Source of the DNA: Mycobacterium sp.
GTDB lineage: Bacteria > Actinomycetota > Actinomycetes > Mycobacteriales > Mycobacteriaceae
Direction: 5' to 3'
Length of the DNA stretch: 64,000 bases
NCBI GenBank assembly: GCA_026393245.1
Contig: JAPLAO010000133.1
Location: 642-64,641, forward strand
Shown here: positions 1-11,327 of the stretch, piece by piece
Numbering within the stretch: the stretch's first letter is position 1
How the letters are laid out: every line of letters starts with the position of its first letter
Translations under genes and position numbers: made by a program
The notes under the pieces: generated by a model
Told to the model about the DNA's origin: nothing
Seen by the model: only the letters and a program-made list of their open reading frames with translations
The model's database searches: none

Positions 1-585
1 CAGACGGCACTGGACAGGTCTGTTCAACACTACGACGTCATGCACCGGGACAATGATCTTCGTTACCTGCTGGCCTATGCCGCTGTGTTGGAAGGGACGT
101 TCACCCCGTTCTTCAAGATGATCATCGACAACCGGGAGAGTCTGTTCGGCGATGGGGACGCCCGAGTCGCCTCGTTGTGCCTGTGGCACTTTTGTGAAGA
201 GGTCGAGCACCGCAGTTCCGCGGTGATGGTCTACGACCACGTGGTCGGCGACCCGATGTACAAGGTGCGCTCATTTGTGCCGATGGTGCGTCACGTCAGC
301 CGGGGATTCCAGATGCTGCTGCGGGAGTTCCGCAGCCAGGTGCCGGGAGAATCCAATGCGCCTTATTACGGATCACTTATGACCCGAAAATTGGCGATAC
401 TTCCGGGCAATCCCTTCGTCAGTGTGCCAGGCCGCCAACGACTCTCGATGCTCCGTGGTGTCGTTGCGTCCGTCATGCCCGGTTACGACCACGACAATCA
501 GCCGCTTCCCGAGTGGGCCGCGACGTGGTTCGAACACTGGGAGCGCGGTGAGGACATGACGATGTTCTACGGCCGGCTTCCGTAG
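1..585 (+). CDS. Predicted metal-dependent hydrolase, 5'-truncated by window edge
   Basis: Frame open from base 1; HFCEEVEHRS (HxxEExEH) motif typical of the mycobacterial metal-dependent hydrolase family. Confidence 0.75.
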   Translation, partial: QTALDRSVQHYDVMHRDNDLRYLLAYAAVLEGTFTPFFKMIIDNRESLFGDGDARVASLCLWHFCEEVEHRSSAVMVYDHVVGDPMYKVRSFVPMVRHVSRGFQMLLREFRSQVPGESNAPYYGSLMTRKLAILPGNPFVSVPGRQRLSMLRGVVASVMPGYDHDNQPLPEWAATWFEHWERGEDMTMFYGRLP

Positions 586-608
586 CGAGCCTCTGAAGAG
601 TTCTGCAT

Positions 609-655
609 AAAAAACGGCACCCGGCGCCGCGCGGATGCGCGAAAGCCGGGTGCCG
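609..655 (-). terminator. Intrinsic terminator for the minus-strand 680-940 gene
   Basis: Perfect 11-bp stem cggcacccggc (615-625) / gccgggtgccg (645-655) next to A6 at 609-614 (U6 on minus strand). Confidence 0.8.
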
Positions 656-679
656 ATGATGCTGTGTAGGCAGTGGAGC

Positions 680-940
680 TTACTTGCGGCCCTTCATGAC
701 TGCGCCAACGACCGCGGTCAGGATGGCGCCGACGACGCCGCCGCCGCCCACCGAGCCAGCGATCTGGGCGATGTCGCCACCGGAGCCCAGTACGTTGCCG
801 AGCAGGCCTCCACCCAGTGCGCCGCCGAGAGCTCCGGCGACGCTGTTACCCGCGGTGCCGAGGCTGTTCTTGGCCGCTCCGGCGGCGTTGCCGCCGATCA
901 GGCCACCGACGATGCCGAGCAGCCAGTCTAAATTACCCAT
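680..940 (-). CDS. Small glycine-zipper membrane protein (86 aa)
   Basis: ATG preceded by GGGAGG SD; hydrophobic GxxxG-rich sequence; terminator directly downstream. Confidence 0.7.
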   Translation of the reverse strand: MGNLDWLLGIVGGLIGGNAAGAAKNSLGTAGNSVAGALGGALGGGLLGNVLGSGGDIAQIAGSVGGGGVVGAILTAVVGAVMKGRK

Positions 941-1014
941 CTAATTCTTCCTCCCTTGTGGCGGCTGCTCTGACGGCAACCCGTCGAATCAGCCCTCGAT
1001 GACCGCCCGAGCGG

Positions 1015-2193
1015 CTAGTCGGGGACGGAGTCGCTCTTGTCGGCAACGCTCGAATGCTGATCTCCGACGGCGTTGTTCTCATAGGTGACCTGGACGGCCT
1101 CGGTGGCCGCAGATGATTCCTCGTACCGCACCACGGTCGACAGATCGTGATCGGTGGCCTCGGTGCGGATGGTCGCCTTCGGCGGCTCCGACAGCAGCGG
1201 CCGGGGGGCCGGCGGCGGCGTCACCGGCTTAGGGGCCGGCGGCGGCGGCGGAGCCTTGACCACCGGTGCCGGCCGGGGGGCCGGCGGCGGCGGCGGAGCC
1301 TTGACCACCGGTGCCGGCCGGGGGGCAGGCGGCGGGGTCGGCTTGACCACCGGGGCACGTTCGGCGACCTTCACCGGAACAACCTCGGCTGGCTTGCGCC
1401 GCAGTAACCAACCCAGGCCCGCGACCAAAGGAATGCCGAGCAAGAGCCACAACCAGTTGAAGCCCTTCTTCTTGACGCCAGGATCGGCGGTGACGGAGGT
1501 GGTGGGCTTGCTCATGGACGTGGTCCCTTCTGCAGTCGACGCCGTGGAGCCGAACCCGGGGATCTTGGTGGCCAGGGCGGCCGGGATGGTGACGAGTCCG
1601 GCGGCCTGCGACCACTGGATCTCAGTACCTTCGGGTCCGACGAACTTGCCGGTCTGGACGCCGTCTGCGATCGAGGTGTCGGCGCTGGGATAGCCGAACG
1701 GCCCGGTGACGGCACCGGACTGACGCCAGGCCTCAAGAACGCGGCCCTTGACCACCGATGCGCCCCACTGGGGATTCCAGTAGATGGCGGCGCCCTCGGG
1801 TGCGGAGAAGTCGTTGAAGCGACCGGCGCTGTCGCCGGTGCCGGTCTCATCGTTCGTCGGGAACCCGAGTCCACTGGTGCCGGGGCCGCCGAGGGCCTTG
1901 TAGCGGTCCAGGATCACGCCGTACATCACGTGCGCGCCGGTGTCCTTCGAGTAGAAGATGGCACCGCCCTGGTAATCGCGCTCAGCTCCGCCCGGCACGT
2001 CAACAGCCTCGCCGACCGCCGAACCGAGGAGCGAGCTCTCCCCGCCGAAGGTGCTGTAGCGGTCGTTGATGGTGGAAACCGCGTCGCTCGATGGGGCGGC
2101 GCTCACCAGCGGGGCGCTCAAGAGCGCGGAACTGGCCACGATGAACATTCCGCCGAGGGCGAGTGGGACTCGCAGCGGCACGATTCGCGTCAC
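1015..2193 (-). CDS. LGFP-repeat exported protein with TM anchor and Pro-rich tail
   Basis: GTG with AGGAG SD; N-terminal signal peptide; LGFP-type repeats (LGFPTNDE, FGYPSADT, YQGGAIFYS); TM segment WLWLLLGIPLVAGLGWLL followed by RRK; Pro-rich repeats. Confidence 0.85.
   Translation of the reverse strand: MTRIVPLRVPLALGGMFIVASSALLSAPLVSAAPSSDAVSTINDRYSTFGGESSLLGSAVGEAVDVPGGAERDYQGGAIFYSKDTGAHVMYGVILDRYKALGGPGTSGLGFPTNDETGTGDSAGRFNDFSAPEGAAIYWNPQWGASVVKGRVLEAWRQSGAVTGPFGYPSADTSIADGVQTGKFVGPEGTEIQWSQAAGLVTIPAALATKIPGFGSTASTAEGTTSMSKPTTSVTADPGVKKKGFNWLWLLLGIPLVAGLGWLLRRKPAEVVPVKVAERAPVVKPTPPPAPRPAPVVKAPPPPPAPRPAPVVKAPPPPPAPKPVTPPPAPRPLLSEPPKATIRTEATDHDLSTVVRYEESSAATEAVQVTYENNAVGDQHSSVADKSDSVPD
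1232..1325. repeat. 45-bp tandem duplication encoding PAPRPAPVVKAPPPP x2
   Basis: Direct repeat read in sequence and translation. Confidence 0.8.
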
Positions 2194-2327
2194 AACAATC
2201 TCCTAATTTGGTTCGATTTATCAGAGGTATTCGGTGGGGATTCTTGCAGTGGAGCTACGGAGGTGGGATGACGCCGGGGCGGGAGGGGGGTTCGACCGCC
2301 CCGGCGTCATGCCCGTACGTGCAGCCG

Positions 2328-4427
2328 TCAGCGACGGTGCCGGGGATCGTCGGACTTCGGATCCACGACATAGGACTCGCTGGCCCGGAACACCGTCGAC
2401 TCATCGCCGACGATGTCATCGTCGGGATGCTCACCGGTGGTGCGCTCGACCCACTCGACCTCGCGGGCCTCGCGGTCGACGAACGTGGCCTTGACCTCGG
2501 AGGCCTTGCCCACGGACCGCCGGCTGACGGTGACCTCGTCCGCGCCGTGTTCGACGACACGCTCGACCTGCCGCTCGACGTACTTGTGGACGATCACCGG
2601 CTTCTCGACGACGATCTCGACGATCCGCTCTACCGGCTTCTCGACGATCCTCTCGACCTCGACGTACACCGGCTTCTCGACAATCTTCTCGACCCGGGTC
2701 TCCACCGGCCGCTCAACGATCCGCTCGTTGACGTACTCGACCTCGCGCTCGATCAGCTTCTCCACCAGCACCGGGTTGGTGACGGTCTTCTCGATGATCT
2801 TCTCCGCCGGCCGGTCGATGACCTTCTCGATGATCTTCGGCCGCTCGACGATCTTCTCGACGATGCGGTCGACGGGCTTGTCGATGACCTTCTCGATGAC
2901 GTTGACCTTCTCGACGATCTTTTCGACGATGCGGTCGACGGGCTTGTCGATGATCTTCTCGATGATGTTGGGCTTCTCGACGATCTTTTCGACGACCCGG
3001 TCCACTGCCCGCTCCAGCACCTTCTCAACGATGTTGGGCTTCTCGACGATCTTTTCGACGATGCGGTCGACGGGCTTCTCGATGATCTTCTCGATGATGT
3101 TGGGCTTCTCGACGATCTTTTCGACGATGCGGTCGACTGGCTTGTCGATGACGCGCTCGATGACGTTGACCTTCTCGACGATCTTTTCGACGATGCGGTC
3201 GACGGGCTTCTCGACGGTGCGCTCAACCACGCTGGGCTTCTCGACGACTTTCTCGACGACGCGGTCGACGGGCTTCTCGATGACCTTCTCGATCACGTTG
3301 ACCTTCTCGACGACCTTCTCGACGATCCGGTCGACGGGCTTGTCGACGACGCGCTCGATGATGTTGGGCTTCTCGACGATCTTCTCGACGATGCGGTCGA
3401 CGGGCTTCTCGACGACGCGCTCCACGATCTGCTCGACAACGACCTCGACGATCCTCTCCACGACCTTGACGACCGGCTTCTCGACGGTGATCTCGACGAT
3501 CCTCTCGACCGGCTTCTCCACGGTCTTGTAGACGATCTTCTCGACCGGGATCTCGATGATCTTCTCGACGATCTTCTCGACCGGAACCTCGACCACCTTG
3601 GTGATGATCTTGTCGACCGGCTTCTCGACGACGCGCTCGACGAGTCGCTGGACCTGTACCTCGACGACCTTGTCGACGATGGTGACCACCGGCTGCTCGA
3701 TCAGGCGCTGGACAGTGACGGCCTTGTCGACGACGTTGTCCTGAACCTCGACGAGGAGTCGCTCCACCAGACGCTGTACGTCGACCGACCGATCGACGAC
3801 CTTGTCGACGATCGACACCACCAGCTTCTCGACCAGCCGCTGGATCTCGATCGGCTTATCGGTGATCTTGTCGATGATGTTCACGACGGGGCGCTCGACG
3901 AGGCGTTGGACCTGCACCGGCTTGTCGGTGATCGTGTCCTGCACGGTGACGACCGGGCGTTCGATGGACCGGCTGACCTTGACCGGCTTGTCGACGACCT
4001 GGTCGACCACGGTGACGACCGGGCGTTCGATGGACCGGCTGATCTTCAGCGGCTTGTCGACGACCTGGTCGACCACGGTGACGACCGGGCGCTCGATGAG
4101 GCGGTTGACAGTGACCGCCTTGTCGACGACTCGGTCCTCGACGGTCACGACCGGCCGCTCCAACTGGCGTTGCACCTTGACCGCCTTGTCGACGACCTCA
4201 TCGACCACCGTCACCACGGGGCGCTCGACCAGGCGGGACACCTGGACCGGCTTGTCGACCACCTTATCGACGGTGTCGACGACGAGACGTTCAATGATCC
4301 GCTCGAGCGTCACCGCTTTGTCGACGATCTTCTCTACGGGCCGCTCTACCAGGCGTTGCACCGTATAGGGCTTGTCGACGAAGTTCTCGACGATGTTGAG
4401 GGGTTGGTTGAGATTGTTGTCAGCCAC
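2328..4427 (-). CDS. Val/Ile/Glu/Lys/Pro-rich repeat protein (~699 aa), alveolin/articulin-like composition
   Basis: GTG at 4427 preceded by AAGGGAGA SD; uninterrupted ORF using GC3-rich codons (GTC, GAG, AAG, ATC); two blocks of 22-aa repeats; function unknown. Confidence 0.85.
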   Translation of the reverse strand: MADNNLNQPLNIVENFVDKPYTVQRLVERPVEKIVDKAVTLERIIERLVVDTVDKVVDKPVQVSRLVERPVVTVVDEVVDKAVKVQRQLERPVVTVEDRVVDKAVTVNRLIERPVVTVVDQVVDKPLKISRSIERPVVTVVDQVVDKPVKVSRSIERPVVTVQDTITDKPVQVQRLVERPVVNIIDKITDKPIEIQRLVEKLVVSIVDKVVDRSVDVQRLVERLLVEVQDNVVDKAVTVQRLIEQPVVTIVDKVVEVQVQRLVERVVEKPVDKIITKVVEVPVEKIVEKIIEIPVEKIVYKTVEKPVERIVEITVEKPVVKVVERIVEVVVEQIVERVVEKPVDRIVEKIVEKPNIIERVVDKPVDRIVEKVVEKVNVIEKVIEKPVDRVVEKVVEKPSVVERTVEKPVDRIVEKIVEKVNVIERVIDKPVDRIVEKIVEKPNIIEKIIEKPVDRIVEKIVEKPNIVEKVLERAVDRVVEKIVEKPNIIEKIIDKPVDRIVEKIVEKVNVIEKVIDKPVDRIVEKIVERPKIIEKVIDRPAEKIIEKTVTNPVLVEKLIEREVEYVNERIVERPVETRVEKIVEKPVYVEVERIVEKPVERIVEIVVEKPVIVHKYVERQVERVVEHGADEVTVSRRSVGKASEVKATFVDREAREVEWVERTTGEHPDDDIVGDESTVFRASESYVVDPKSDDPRHRR

Positions 4428-4848
4428 AGGGTTCTCCCTTTCGCGCGTCCGGACCAGGCGGAGCGACCGTATCAGGGTCAACGGCGATTCCGCTAAGTAA
4501 TCGAAACGTTGCTGTAATCGCACGTCGATGACGCGAAACAGTCCGCAGCAGCGATCCGAAGCAAGCCAGGTCGTTTTTTGTGTTCGAGTTAGATTCTTGA
4601 AGCTAGTCCCACGATTATTTGCCTTGCAAGGTTTTCGCAAAAGTTCTCCGGAACGACCTCTGCCGTTTACCAGGCGAGGCGCGCAGGTGGTCGCCACCGC
4701 GGGTGTTCTCCCCCGATAGGGCCACGGTTTCCGATCACGACGACCCGAATTGACGGCCGGCGCCGGGCCAGCCCTGCACCTGCCCGGGTTGGAACAGCAG
4801 GGCAGTCGTCGCCGATCTAATGGCGCTGGCGGTACCGGTGGGCCCCCG

Positions 4849-5637
4849 CTAGTCCGCGCCGAGCAGTCGCCGCATCAGTCGATGGGCGCCGGCCACCACC
4901 TTGGCGCGGTCGGGATCGTTTCGCCCCGCGAGGTCCTCGGCGTTGCCGCCGGCGATCCACACCGGACCATTTCCTAACTGCGCCAGACCTTCTCGGGCCA
5001 CGTCCGCGGGTTCGGCGACGCGCAGACCCGGCACGTCGAAGTTCAATCCAGCCCGCTCCATCGCCGGGGTTCGGGTGACGCCTAGAACGAGTTCCAGGAC
5101 GTCGACATTGTGCTCGCGCAGCTCCAACCAGAGACCTTCGGCGAAGATCCGCCCGAATGCCTTCACCCCGCCGTACACGGTGTGCCGGGCCGAACCCAGA
5201 TAGCCGGCCATCGAGCCCACGAGCACAATTCCGCCGCGGCGACGCTCACGCATCGGACGGGCGTAATGCTGGACCAGCGCCATCATGGTGGTGACATTCA
5301 CGTCGATGACCTGCTGGAAAGCGGAGAGGTCGGCGTCCAGGAACTCCGCACTGGCCGTGTTCGCGCCGGCGTTGTAGACCAGCAACCCGATTTCCAGGTC
5401 GTCGGTGAATGAAGTGACCGCCTCCACTGCGCCGCTTTCCGCGAGATCGGTTGGCAGAGTGCGTACTTCGACTCCGCGGTGGCGGCATTCCCGTGCTGTG
5501 GATTCCAGTGGTCCGGGGTTGCGAGCAAATAGGGCGAGGTTGATCCCGGCATCGGCCAACTGCAATGCGAACTCGGCGCCCACTCCTTCCGACCCGCCGG
5601 CCACCACGGCCCATGGCCCGTATTTCGCAAGCGACAC
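4849..5637 (-). CDS. Short-chain dehydrogenase/reductase
   Basis: KYGPWAVVAGGSEGVG nucleotide-binding motif, YNAG, YGGVK catalytic YxxxK; start placed at GTG 5637. Confidence 0.9.
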   Translation of the reverse strand: MSLAKYGPWAVVAGGSEGVGAEFALQLADAGINLALFARNPGPLESTARECRHRGVEVRTLPTDLAESGAVEAVTSFTDDLEIGLLVYNAGANTASAEFLDADLSAFQQVIDVNVTTMMALVQHYARPMRERRRGGIVLVGSMAGYLGSARHTVYGGVKAFGRIFAEGLWLELREHNVDVLELVLGVTRTPAMERAGLNFDVPGLRVAEPADVAREGLAQLGNGPVWIAGGNAEDLAGRNDPDRAKVVAGAHRLMRRLLGAD

Positions 5638-5732
5638 CCGTTGATCATCCCGCACATTGGTCGCCGCGGAGATCGCCTGCCGGGTGGTGGTTGCGGGCGT
5701 CTGCTGGATTTGGCGCGTGGTAAGCCTGATCG

Positions 5733-7076
5733 GTGTCTGACAGCCTGTTTGACCTTCCCGGCGACCCCGGGTGGGCGGCCGCGACGACGTCGGCGTCGGC
5801 ACCTTTGGCGGTCCGGATGCGCCCGGCTGCGCTCGAGGAGGTGGTGGGCCAGGCACATCTGCTGGGGCCCGGGTCGCCGTTGCGTCGACTCATCGAAGGC
5901 ACCGGCGCCGCGTCGGTGATCCTCTACGGCCCGCCTGGCACCGGTAAGACCACCCTGGCCTCGCTGATCTCGCACGCGACCGGGCGCCGATTTGAGGCGC
6001 TGTCGGCGCTGACTGCCGGGGTCAAGGAGGTCCGGGCGGTCGTCGATACCGCCCGCACGGCACTGATCCGCGGTGAGCAGACGGTGTTGTTCATCGACGA
6101 GGTCCACCGGTTTTCCAAAACCCAGCAGGACGCCCTGCTGGCCGCGGTTGAGAACCGGGTGGTGCTGTTGGTGGCCGCGACCACCGAGAACCCGTCGTTC
6201 TCGGTGGTCGCGCCACTGCTGTCCCGCTCGCTGATCCTGCAACTGCATCCGCTGACGCCGGACGATATCCGCGCCGTGGTGCGCCGAGCGGTCGCCGATC
6301 CGCGCGGACTGGGCGGCGCGGTGGCCGTTGCGGACGACGCGGTGGAACTACTGGTCAAACTTGCCGCCGGCGATGCCCGCCGGGCGCTGACGGCGCTGGA
6401 GGTCGCCGCGGAGACGGCGGCGGCGGCCGGGGACGCCGTCACAGTCGTGACCGTTGAACAGTCACTGGACCAGGCGGCGGTGCGTTATGACCGCGACGGT
6501 GACCAGCACTACGACGTGATCAGTGCGTTCATCAAGAGTATGCGCGGGTCCGACGTCGATGCGGCACTGCATTACCTGGCCCGGATGCTGGTGGCCGGTG
6601 AGGATCCCCGGTTTCTGGCGCGACGGCTGGTGATCCTCGCCAGCGAGGACATCGGAATGGCCGATCCAACCGCGTTACTCATCGCGGTCGCGGCGGCACA
6701 GACCGTTGCGCTGATCGGAATGCCGGAAGCTCAGTTGACCCTGGCTCACGCCACCGTGTACCTGGCGACTGCGCCGAAGTCGAATGCGGTCACCACGGCA
6801 CTGGGCGCGGCGATGGGCGATATCCGGGCGGGCAAAGCCGGTTTGGTGCCTGCCCACCTTCGGGACGGGCATTATCCGAGTGCGGCCCAACTCGGTAATG
6901 CGCAGGACTATCGATATCCGCATGATGACCCGGATGGTGTTGTGGCACAACAGTATCCGCCGGATGAGATATCCGATGTCGACTACTACCTGCCGACCAC
7001 GCATGGTGCTGAGCGGGAGATCGCCGGCCGGTTGGAGAAAGACTCTTCGTTGCCCATCAGAACCCGAAGCTTCTGA
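5733..7076 (+). CDS. rarA: Replication-associated recombination protein A (MgsA/RarA AAA+ ATPase)
   Basis: [55 protein letters not shown]. Confidence 0.95.
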
Positions 7077-8573: not shown

Positions 8574-11327
8574 GTGCAGACACATGAGATCAGGAAGCGG
8601 TTCCTTGATCACTTCGTGAACGCGGGCCATACCGAGGTGCCCAGCGCCTCGGTGATCCTCGACGATCCCAATCTGCTGTTCGTCAATGCCGGCATGGTGC
8701 AGTTCGTGCCCTTTTTCCTAGGCCAGCGCACGCCGCCGTATGACACCGCGGTCAGCATCCAGAAGTGCATCCGCACCCCTGATATCGACGAGGTGGGCAT
8801 CACCACCCGGCACAACACCTTCTTCCAGATGGCCGGCAACTTCTCCTTCGGCGACTACTTCAAACGCCGGGCGATTGAACTGGCCTGGGGTCTGCTCACC
8901 AAGCCGGTCGCCGACGGCGGCTACGGGATGGATCCGGAAAAGCTCTGGGCCACAGTCTTTTACGACGACGATGAAGCCGTCACGCTGTGGCAGGACGTTG
9001 CCGGACTGCCGCCCGAACGTATTCAGCGTCGTGGCATGGCCGACAACTACTGGTCGATGGGTATCCCCGGGCCGTGCGGGCCGTGCTCGGAGATCTACTA
9101 CGACCGCGGGCCGGATTACGGCATTGAGGGCGGCCCAGAGGTCAACGAGGACCGCTATATCGAGATCTGGAACCTCGTCTTCATGCAGAACGAGCGTGGC
9201 GAGGGCACTTCCAAGACCGAGTTCGACATCCTCGGGCCGCTGCCGCGGCAGAACATCGACACCGGCATGGGAGTAGAGCGCATCGCCTGCCTGCTGCAGG
9301 GCGTCGACAACGTCTACGAGATCGACCTGCTGCGGCCGATGATCGACACGGTGGCCGAGCGCGCGCCCCGGGACTATGGCGCCGGTAATGCGGCCGACGA
9401 CGTGCGATACCGGGTCATCGCCGACCACACCCGCACCGCGGCGATCATCATCGGCGACGGCGTAACCCCGTCCAACGAGGGCCGCGGTTACGTGCTGCGC
9501 AGGCTGCTGCGCCGCATCGTGCGCTCGGCGAAACTGCTGGGTATCGACACCCCGATCGTGGGTGCGCTGATGGCGACCGTGCGCGACGCCATGGGCCCGT
9601 CCTATCCCGAACTGGTCACCGATTTCGACCGGATCAGCCGGATCGCGGTGGCCGAGGAGACCGCGTTCAACCGGACCCTGGTGGCGGGATCGCGGCTGTT
9701 CGAGGACGCGGCGACCGGTACCAAGTCGGCAGGAAAGACCGTGCTGGGCGGTTCGGAGGCCTTCGCCCTGCACGACACCTACGGATTCCCCATCGAACTC
9801 ACCCTGGAGATGGCCGCAGAGGCCGGGTTGACGGTCGACGAGCTCGGGTTCCGGGAGTTGATGGCCGAGCAGCGTCGACGTGCCAAGGCCGACGCCGCGT
9901 CCCGAAAGCATGCCCATGCAGACCTCTCGGCGTTCCGCGAACTGGTCGATGCCGGCCCGACCGAGTTCACCGGTTTCGATGAGCTGACCTCGCAGGCCCG
10001 GATCCTGGGCATCTTCGTCGACGGAAAACGGGTTCCGGTGGTGGCCCACCGTCTGCGGGCGCACTCGGAAGCCGCGCCGCCCGAACGGGTCGAGATCGTG
10101 CTCGACCGGACCCCGCTGTACGCCGAGTCCGGCGGGCAGATCGCCGATGCCGGTCAGATCACCGGAACCGGCGGCAATGCGACGGCCAGGGCTGCCGTTA
10201 CCGACGTGCAGAAGATCGCCAAGACCCTGTGGGTGCACCGGGTCAATGTCGAGTCTGGCGAGTTCGTCGAGGGCGACACGATCGTCGCCGCGGTGGATCC
10301 GAAGTGGCGCCACGGATCCACCCAGGGGCATTCCGGCACGCATCTGGTGCATGCCGCATTGCGACAAGTGCTGGGGCCCAACGCCGTTCAGGCCGGATCG
10401 CTGAATCGGCCCGGCTATCTGCGGTTCGACTTCAAGTGGCAGGGACCGCTCACCGAGGAGCAGCGCAGCCAGATCGAGGTGGTCGCCAACGAGGCCGTCG
10501 AGGCTGACTTCCCGGTGAACACCTTCACCACCGGAATCGAGAAGGCCAAGGAGATGGGCGCGATGGCGCTCTTCGGCGAGCAGTACCCCGATGAGGTCAG
10601 GGTGGTGGAGATCGGGGGACCGTTCTCCCTGGAACTCTGTGGCGGCACCCACGTGCGCAACTCTGCACAGGTTGGTCCGGTGACGATTCTGGGGGAGTCC
10701 TCCGTGGGATCAGGTGTCCGCCGCGTCGAGGCCTACGCGGGCCTGGACTCGTTCCGCTACCTGGCCAAGGAACGTGCACTGCTGGCCGGGCTTGCCTCAA
10801 GTTTGAAAGTGCCGTCCGATGAGGTGCCCGGCCGGGTCGCGACGCTGGTGGAGCGACTCAGGGTCGCCGAGAAGGAACTCGAGCGGATGCGCCTTTCCGC
10901 CGCGCGTGCCGGCGCGGCAAATGCCGTTGCCGCCGCAGAAGTCGTCGGTAAGGTCCGTCTAGTGGCGCAGCGGATGTCGGACGGGATGACCGCGGCCGAC
11001 CTTCGGTCGCTGGTCGGCGACATCCGGGGCCGCCTGGGCTCCGAACCTGCCGTCGTGGTGCTGATCTCGGAGGTTGCCGAGGTCCGAGACGATCACAAGG
11101 GCGATCACAAGGGCGATCAGCAGGGCGTGGCCGTGCCGTTCGTGGTGGCTGCCAACGATGCCGCAGTGGACGTGGGCCTGCGGGCTGGCGATCTCGTCCG
11201 GGGAATCGCCGACGCCGTGGGTGGCCGCGGCGGTGGCAAGGCCGACCTGGCCCAGGGTTCGGGCAGCGATCCGGGGGGTATCGACGCCGCATTGAACTGG
11301 GTCCGCGCCGAACTGGCGCGGGACTGA
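8574..11327 (+). CDS. alaS: Alanine-tRNA ligase
   Basis: [51 protein letters not shown]. Confidence 0.99.
11091..11126. repeat. 12-bp tandem repeat in alaS ([12 protein letters not shown])
   Basis: gatcacaagggc x2 plus gatcagcagggc. Confidence 0.8.

Follow-up and report, generated by a model that had tools for sequence, protein, structure and literature searches.

A repeat protein and a tagged wall-binding membrane protein encoded side by side in freshwater Mycobacteriaceae and relatives: a candidate trans-envelope module

Do three neighbouring genes of a freshwater mycobacterium encode the parts of a single structure that reaches from the cytoplasm through the membrane to the cell wall? The genes lie near one end of a 64,000-nucleotide stretch of contig JAPLAO010000133.1 (Mycobacterium sp., assembly GCA_026393245.1; the window, at its full length), where the listing of open reading frames (ORFs) places them at positions 609–4427, co-oriented and all on the minus strand. 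Read along that strand they are rep (2328–4427; 699 aa counted from the GTG at 4427), encoding a repeat protein; an LGFP-domain gene, which we call the anchor (1015–2193; 392 aa) and whose product is a predicted type I membrane protein; and gz (680–940; 86 aa), encoding a small, Gly-rich putative membrane protein. Each is preceded by a purine-rich Shine-Dalgarno site 7–10 nt 5′ of the start codon (AAGGGAG for rep, AGGAG for the anchor, and GGGAGGAAG for gz), and the genes are separated by 134 nt and 74 nt respectively; an initial annotation of the window had described the same three reading frames and sites, with gaps of about 135 and 75 bp, and direct reading agrees with it. We favor, at a probability of roughly 45%, the reading that these genes specify a trans-envelope skeleton in which a rep scaffold is tied to the wall via the anchor.

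The evidence that carries this reading is genetic linkage. Loci were retrieved in three independent ways, via the LGFP protein, via a DNA pattern for the conserved C-terminal tag of the anchor, and via the rep N-terminus. The LGFP route yielded 17 loci, in which rep lies upstream and gz downstream wherever the flank suffices; the tag pattern yielded 44 stretches, nearly all from Mycobacteriaceae metagenome-assembled genomes (MAGs), together with six cultured Nocardia and some other Actinomycetota MAGs; and the rep route yielded 42 loci, adding Nocardia alni, Nocardia aurantia, the MAG OH_HFB_68 and Branchiibius cervicis NBRC 106593. A tagged anchor gene comes next in every rep-retrieved locus that has at least 3 kb downstream, and by any of the routes all loci with enough flank have rep and the anchor side by side in the same orientation. 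Clustering of the neighbouring ORFs shows that these two genes alone are common to at least eight unrelated genomic contexts, spanning freshwater Mycobacteriaceae MAGs, eight Nocardia species, other Actinomycetes and Branchiibius. The Nocardia loci, for example, show rep, LGFP and gz in that order in other surroundings, where neither rarA nor alaS is nearby, and at one of them (L037) the ORF coordinates permit only tight spacing among the three. The conserved head and C-terminal domains of rep also extend from Mycobacteriaceae to Nocardia and Branchiibius. The initial annotation had foreseen that its proposal would fall if the genes were unlinked elsewhere, which is clearly not what we find, and the genes of the trio are almost certainly functionally coupled.

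The architecture of the anchor suggests which side of the membrane each of its parts occupies. Hydropathy predicts a signal peptide at residues 1–33 with a cleavage-like VSA|AP site, and a single transmembrane (TM) helix at residues 245–265 (nucleotides 1399–1461) followed by RRKP; the signal peptide, the later single TM helix and the RRKP together predict that the LGFP domain is exported to the wall compartment. This ectodomain (residues ~35–210) matches the Pfam LGFP family (PF08310) in two stretches at 95.7 bits against a cut-off of 22 (E 2e-27), and residues 54–170 match the LGFP structures of PS1 (PDB 6sx4 / 6swz, 6e-23 to 2e-24). An AlphaFold2 model built with 56 homologues has a predicted local distance difference test (pLDDT) score of 85–97 at residues ~31–210 and a helix at 248–263, and everything C-terminal of that helix is disordered, with a pLDDT below 65 in the tail. 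An assignment as a type I membrane protein with ~125 residues predicted to be cytoplasmic is thus well supported by the models, and it agrees with the earlier suggestion of an LGFP domain outside and a Pro-rich tail inside. The further idea that the Pro-rich part of the tail does the tethering fares less well: a cytoplasmic tail is indeed predicted, but its conserved part is the last ~45 residues, whereas the Pro-rich, disordered stretch varies among species. In the window this spacer, PAPRPAPVVKAPPPP, is encoded by a 45-bp tandem repeat of 2.8 copies (1232–1353, minus strand); other species have VEHIREEIREVKAEI or ERVEHKVEHVVEKVE stretches, and Branchiibius has PVVREPAK repeats.

The Branchiibius locus is of particular use in separating what is exchangeable from what is conserved. 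In Branchiibius cervicis, rep (L095, 6962–8839) is followed 43 nt later by an anchor gene whose product has a signal peptide and, in place of LGFP, a PG_binding_1 domain (PF01471, 5e-14); next come an Ala/Thr-rich linker, the TM helix WWWLLLPLILLPLLGWLLW, RRRG, and a tail of the PVVREPAK repeats that terminates in VEVRYLNNAIGDHEQSLEDKSDDD. The TM helix, the tail, the tag (VTYENNAvG..S..DKSD) and the adjacency to rep are thus all retained. Branchiibius is a member of the Micrococcales, an order without mycolic acids; the LGFP form of the ectodomain is that of mycolate-containing hosts. The replacement of LGFP by PG_binding_1 with tail and tag kept supports wall binding on the outside and a conserved function in the cytoplasm; that is, the sequences support wall attachment as the role of the ectodomain and point to a cytoplasmic site for the conserved interaction.

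Within the tail the tag (last 45 aa; 1018–1152, minus strand; V.RYE....VQVTYENNAVG....S.ADKSD..PD) is the sole conserved part in the orthologue alignment. It is present in all orthologues with the consensus V.RYE....[IV].VTYENNA[VIL]G....S.[AE]DKSD; the invariant columns are V354, Y371, N373, N374, A375, D385, K386 and S387, and Y357, V369, T370, E372, S382, A384, D388 and D392 are at least 90% conserved. Because a protein search with these 45 residues returned eight short fragments of LGFP tails only and was uninformative, carriers were sought by a DNA pattern scan, which confined the tag to rep-bearing lineages, save for one chance match in a Pirellulales MAG. Tagged proteins not linked to rep are encoded in the same genomes or in MAGs of related Mycobacteriaceae. 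One is a second type of anchor, with a signal peptide, a CBAH-family domain (PF02275, 1.7e-50; choloylglycine hydrolase-like), a TM helix (FGWWWIPIGL...) similar to that of the LGFP anchor, a Pro-rich tail and the tag; it is encoded on the minus strand in the MiE-22 chromosome OZ248467 (L024, 5374–7155) and is present in two other MAGs (L026 and L050). The unit of TM helix, tail and tag therein behaves, as judged from these arrangements, as a portable cassette. In one MAG, QcrB (NCBIfam bc1_QcrB_actin, 3.3e-90; L045, 7013–7999, minus strand) carries the tag on a C-terminal extension ending in ...VPVTYENNALGDGERSIADKSDTTQD, and a C-terminal extension of ribosomal protein uS3 (RpsC) ends with the tag, ...PAETTVQVTYENNAVDGQQSSADKSDLTPDHLQE, in two MAGs of freshwater Mycobacteriaceae (L016 9197–10102, the same as L025; and L017 6792–7718, the same as L055). 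The uS3 tag is not an assembly chimera: the rpsC tag DNA is ~85–88% identical to that of the LGFP gene in the same MAG, with scattered, largely third-codon differences, and rplP comes next as normal.

All of the tagged C-termini are predicted to be cytoplasmic, which, together with the restriction of the tag to rep-bearing lineages, suggests a shared cytoplasmic partner, and rep would be the obvious candidate. The tag could instead be read by a different cytoplasmic factor, for instance one that serves in localisation, quality control or modification, with rep merely a co-regulated neighbour and no direct tether. The carriers QcrB, uS3 and the hydrolase anchor, all encoded far from rep, fit such a reader, as does the predicted disorder of the tag when alone (in the AlphaFold2 model of the anchor), which is a property of short linear motifs for many kinds of partner. 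We nonetheless consider this explanation unlikely, since rep stands next to a tagged anchor in at least eight contexts and the pairing survives the ectodomain swap, the tag is found almost exclusively in rep-bearing lineages, and no other gene is conserved beside the pair. As a separate observation, EHPDDDIVGDES in the C-terminal domain of rep (residues ~665–675, window ~2400–2435) resembles the tag core YENNAVGD.QES (window ~1040–1085), sharing a pattern [DN][DN][AIV][VIL]G that is also seen in Nocardia and Branchiibius; the resemblance may be due to chance.

The rep product has no signal peptide, TM helix or any hydrophobic segment by hydropathy and is predicted to be a cytoplasmic protein. 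It begins with a conserved head (residues 1–45, PLNIVENFVDKPYTVQRLVERPVEK...), followed by ten 22-residue type A units (residues 45–264, nucleotides 3636–4295; IERPVVTVVDQVVDKPVKVSRS), a middle section that is its most alveolin-like part (VEVPVEKIVEKIIEIPVEKIVYKTVEKPV), ten 22-residue type B units (residues 341–560, nucleotides 2748–3407; KPVDRIVEKIVEKPNIIEKVID), and a conserved, non-repeat C-terminal domain of ~90 residues (608–699, nucleotides 2331–2606) with the sequence ...VEHG..E..V.RR..GKA.EV.A.F..R..REVEWVER.TGEHPDDDIVGDES..., all encoded on the minus strand. This last domain is rare, with 12 short fragmentary relatives among 1.84 billion representative proteins (HMMER). The repeat period is 66 bp in the DNA over 9.1 copies, corresponding to 22 residues, with an autocorrelation of 0.46–0.61 at lags of 22, 44 and 66 and Pro spacings that alternate between 12 and 10. 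The composition is strongly biased (V 26%, E 14%, I 10%, K 10%, R 8%, D 7% and P 6%; E+K+R+D 39%), and the protein is ~460 aa long in one MAG but exceeds 1,400 aa in Nocardia sp. NPDC051832, the ends being conserved and the copy number of the repeats variable.

The highest hydrophobic harmonic of both unit types is at 98.2 degrees (11/3), the mean hydrophobic moment is 0.56–0.63 at 100 degrees versus 0.21–0.25 at 170 degrees, and AlphaFold2 predicts the Pro-free units to be helical (pLDDT 65–86); short, Pro-punctuated amphipathic helices are therefore better supported by the modelling than beta strands. These properties raise an alternative in which the linkage is functional, yet rep, instead of a rigid skeleton, forms an apolipoprotein-, perilipin- or LEA-like peripheral coat of short amphipathic helices on the inner leaflet or on lipid bodies, and the anchor and gz recruit or regulate it in the protection or remodelling of membranes under stress. 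In addition to the helical harmonic and moment, a coat of this type would explain 22-mers built as two halves of ~11 residues with Pro and a mean hydrophobicity of ~0, and we note that some orthologous anchor tails contain helical charged repeats, one of which (P0225) is assigned to the apolipoprotein family by the Joint Genome Institute (JGI). However, the hydrophobic face is made almost wholly of the beta-branched residues V and I, which is unusual for lipid-binding helices; in the type B units the 81.8-degree harmonic almost equals that at 98.2 degrees (1.62 versus 1.69); and the conserved head and tail domains of rep and its wall-binding partner are foreign to known lipid coat proteins. 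A lipid coat is improbable in our estimation.

In database comparisons, rep of the window matches Pfam IMCp (PF12314) with 25.1 bits against a cut-off of 21.1, whereas the Branchiibius rep has no IMCp match and matches DUF445 instead; these Pfam matches probably reflect composition, and homology is not demonstrated by them. NCBIfam returned only marginal low-complexity matches above E 0.01, PADLOC a single weak, sub-threshold low-complexity match (ZorA, E 0.002), and the PDB sequence matches for rep are too weak to use (PUM-HD 0.006, engineered OspA 0.02–0.06). A protein search with full-length rep gave ~40%-identical matches of repeat on repeat and no self match, as its candidate selection saturates on repetitive proteins; we rejected the matches as orthologues on account of their different architecture (a TM segment, EKIVEKPV repeats and a helix-hairpin-helix/DUF4332 region), and the true orthologues were recovered by tblastn on the fetched loci. 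Among the rejected proteins (P0001–P0120), many from metagenomic bacteria, one of them in Vicinamibacterales, have an N-terminal TM helix, VEKIVEKIVDRPVEKIV-type repeats and a C-terminal helix-hairpin-helix/DUF4332 region, and are labelled 'flap endonuclease-like'; this appears to be an uncharacterised architecture of its own that uses repeats of the same kind as rep.

The third gene, gz, comes directly after that for the anchor at loci of Mycobacteriaceae and Nocardia and is a frequent member of the group, not a universal one. Its product is 31% Gly with 11 GxxxG motifs, a C-terminal hydrophobic helix (Kyte-Doolittle 1.8–2.0) and a KGRK end, has no lipoprotein signal, and forms a conserved family of its own (MEWLLG..GGNAAGA.KNSLG..GNS...GGGG..GA.LTA.VGAVMKGRK). 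There is no Pfam or NCBIfam match above threshold, and the sub-threshold hints are to Gly-zipper_YMGG (E 0.1, for a Nocardia orthologue), Rick_17kDa_Anti (E 3.2) and SlyB (E 8.3); the likeness of gz to Gly-zipper_YMGG and to Rick_17kDa_Anti/SlyB is one of composition only, namely repeated GxxxG in a hydrophobic segment. A 30-codon internal deletion in L002/L036 (56 aa) and a frameshift in L019 (126 aa) are likely to be lesions of gz or assembly errors.

Putative signals for expression frame the three genes and divide rep from its partners. The strong terminator that had been noted at 609–655 is evident as a stem at 616–654 (GGCACCCGGC...GCCGGGTGCC) followed by six T residues at 609–614 (the whole at 609–654, minus strand), with a folding energy of −40 kcal/mol, a z-score of −4.9, and none of 200 shuffles as stable. 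A second hairpin (2268–2310, minus strand) begins 18 nt past the rep stop codon and consists of ATGACGCCGGGGCGG, the loop TCGAACCCCCCTC, and CCGCCCCGGCGTCAT, forming a 15-bp stem with a C-rich loop (ΔG −48.9, z −3.5) and no U tract. It is found once per locus in 28 loci, always at the rep/anchor junction, and is nearly invariant, loop included, among flanking intergenic DNA that has diverged; the outer stem pairs show changes from A-U to G-C and G-U. It is absent from the Nocardia loci, and no Rfam family matches anywhere in 500–4900. As it is present in a single copy in the window and one per locus at the same junction, we rejected its identification as a dispersed element of the repetitive extragenic palindromic (REP) type. 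Between this hairpin and the Shine-Dalgarno site of LGFP, no promoter-like block is conserved. Upstream of rep by ~150–215 nt, on the other hand, a block of ~70 nt (window 4580–4645) is conserved among the mycobacterial loci and contains a promoter-like element (4600–4629, minus strand) with TTGCAA at 4624–4629, an 18-nt spacer and TAGCTT at 4600–4605. To judge from its sequence this may be the rep promoter, which would give a leader of ~165 nt, and an exact lake metatranscriptome contig covering 4348–4569 likewise suggests a long leader. In our reading there would be one promoter, before rep, with the hairpin as a candidate attenuator or 3′-end stabiliser. Exactly matching RNA contigs fall on LGFP and on the two ends of rep, and extend to 33 nt upstream of the LGFP start, suggesting that both genes are expressed, with the reservation that the RNA libraries may contain carry-over DNA.

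In the mechanism that we propose, rep would form a membrane-proximal scaffold and the anchor would pin this to the wall through the membrane; the tag would be the docking element for rep, and the variable Pro-rich or charged stretch of the tail a flexible spacer. The conserved hairpin after rep would raise the output of rep above that of the anchor, and gz would take part as a frequent third member, a small glycine-zipper-like membrane protein. That rep contacts the tag, assembles into a lattice and sits at the membrane is inferred, as is the function of the hairpin.

Several observations weigh against this reading, the first being that the contact of rep with the tail or tag, on which it turns, is a presumed one. 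The AlphaFold2 model of rep (41-sequence alignment) contains no confident fold, with a mean pLDDT of 45.5 and a predicted TM-score (pTM) of 0.29. The tagged QcrB, uS3 and hydrolase anchor are encoded away from rep, so that the partner of the tag could be a different one. No RNA contig spans 2194–2327 or 941–1014, and none falls on gz. Most of the loci come from one family-level clade, and part of the synteny is thus inherited and not independently maintained. Finally, gz, which the initial annotation had proposed as a membrane hub, is missing from Branchiibius and from the MAG OH_HFB_68, and the core of the module is therefore the rep-anchor pair.

A variant that turns the structure inside out, with rep exported non-classically and assembled outside the membrane as a surface layer or sheath held by the LGFP or peptidoglycan-binding ectodomain, is in our view very improbable. 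Both of the alternative ectodomains are wall-binding modules, as is typical for holding surface structures, and among the plateins, protist relatives of the articulins, some have signal peptides (PMC4303705). Rep itself, however, has neither a signal peptide nor a TM helix; what has been exchanged is the ectodomain, whereas the cytoplasmic tag and rep are conserved; and neighbour clustering finds no secretion-system gene conserved nearby. Least probable of all, and largely refuted, is the explanation that the adjacency is inherited synteny without function or the repeat ORF a low-complexity artefact, for although the loci are mostly from related freshwater Mycobacteriaceae, the Pfam matches are driven by composition and a 777-aa ORF runs antisense to rep, the codon usage favors rep, its head and tail domains are conserved as far as Nocardia and Branchiibius, the flanking contexts are unrelated and the RNA contigs are exact.

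The antisense ORF (2163–4496, plus strand) merits a comment, as it spans the whole of rep with LDDLLDD... repeats and could mislead gene callers. The G+C content at third codon positions is 0.92 for rep as against 0.68 for the antisense ORF, and the minus strand is therefore the coding strand; this and the pattern of conservation rule out the 777-aa ORF as a true gene. JGI gene calls on 97%-identical contigs likewise give a 699-aa product on the same strand as rep.

Beyond rep lie an SDR gene (4849–5640) and then rarA (5733–7076, plus strand), with the SDR gene between rarA and rep; it was rejected as a member of the module because it is missing at many loci that carry the trio. The description of this region as accessory DNA holds in part: the trio is absent from named Mycobacterium species (among 185,579 species genomes), but it occupies a fixed position throughout the freshwater clade. 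All of the close relatives of the window locus are freshwater Mycobacteriaceae MAGs, one of them a complete 3.26-Mb chromosome (OZ248467), and the DNA sequencing runs that contain the window sequence are lake and freshwater metagenomes.

Some individual loci depart from the common pattern. Two soil-survey MAGs have an extra short LGFP protein encoded just upstream of rep (L081, 5643–6611; L085, 5754–6620), and the MAG MFD01689.bin.1.5 has two separate rep-anchor loci (L081 and L091). Mycobacterial alaS, rarA, rep and LGFP appear in L012 and L070 (CAMCWJ01...) under the name 'Bifidobacterium breve isolate ME-09jul19-156', a label that looks wrong. In a long-read MAG (L001, ~8700–9170) the rep repeats are interrupted by a frameshift, likely to be an assembly error or else a real lesion.

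Among known systems, rep recalls the articulins, alveolins and plateins, repeat proteins of protist membrane skeletons that are Val/Pro-rich with 12-residue repeats (PMC4303705). Rep resembles the articulins and alveolins in its Val/Pro-rich, charged composition, with EKIVEKPV / VEVPVEKIV subrepeats such as those in the middle section, in its long, variable core of tandem repeats, and in its proposed site beneath the membrane, tied to membrane proteins. It differs in having a period of 22 residues (Pro at 12 + 10) versus their 12, and in being bacterial, possessing head and tail domains of its own and being encoded beside a wall-binding anchor. Rep may therefore work like an articulin, but given the 22-residue period and an IMCp match that is not reproduced in an orthologue, it is not to be filed as a member of the alveolin/articulin family.

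The anchor shares the LGFP domain of its ectodomain with PS1, a mycoloyltransferase of Corynebacterium glutamicum, but PS1 is an enzyme that is secreted and carries LGFP at its C-terminus, whereas in the anchor LGFP is N-terminal and is followed by the TM helix and a tagged tail of ~125 aa, with no catalytic domain. Repeats of 11 or 22 residues that form amphipathic helices are a feature of exchangeable apolipoproteins, perilipins, alpha-synuclein and LEA proteins. Rep is like the apolipoprotein-type proteins in its 22-mers of ~11-residue halves, Pro punctuation, 11/3 periodicity and charged polar face, yet it has no sequence relationship to them and its hydrophobic face is V/I as opposed to L/F/A. 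Crescentin, FilP/Scy, DivIVA/Wag31 and the bactofilins are built from heptad coiled coils or the beta-helical DUF583 fold. Rep is comparable to these solely as a proposed non-nucleotide-binding, self-associating scaffold near the envelope; it differs in having Pro every 10–12 residues and a dedicated wall-binding membrane partner, and has no match to any of their families in Pfam or NCBIfam.

We know of no articulin- or alveolin-type membrane skeleton in bacteria, nor of a dedicated protein that ties such a scaffold to the wall; we found no description in the literature of bacterial proteins or a module of this kind, and rate the module as matching no described bacterial system. A broader proposal, which we consider doubtful, is that the tag is a general docking signal that recruits wall anchors, the CBAH-family hydrolase, QcrB and, in some lineages, ribosomes by way of uS3 to an articulin-like rep lattice, so that a membrane skeleton would both couple the membrane to the wall and organise a cortical compartment. 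Cultured carriers exist among Nocardia aurantia, N. alni, several Nocardia NPDC strains and Branchiibius cervicis NBRC 106593. Even if the proposed skeleton is wrong, the two genes are a conserved and well-delimited pair that bears a clear signature of domain swapping. If it is right, Mycobacteriales and their relatives would possess a class of cytoskeletal or envelope architecture new to bacteria, the Val/Pro/charged repeat scaffolds whose structure is unsolved in protists would gain a tractable bacterial model, and the tag would be a portable C-terminal docking element acquired in evolution by a ribosomal protein and a respiratory subunit.

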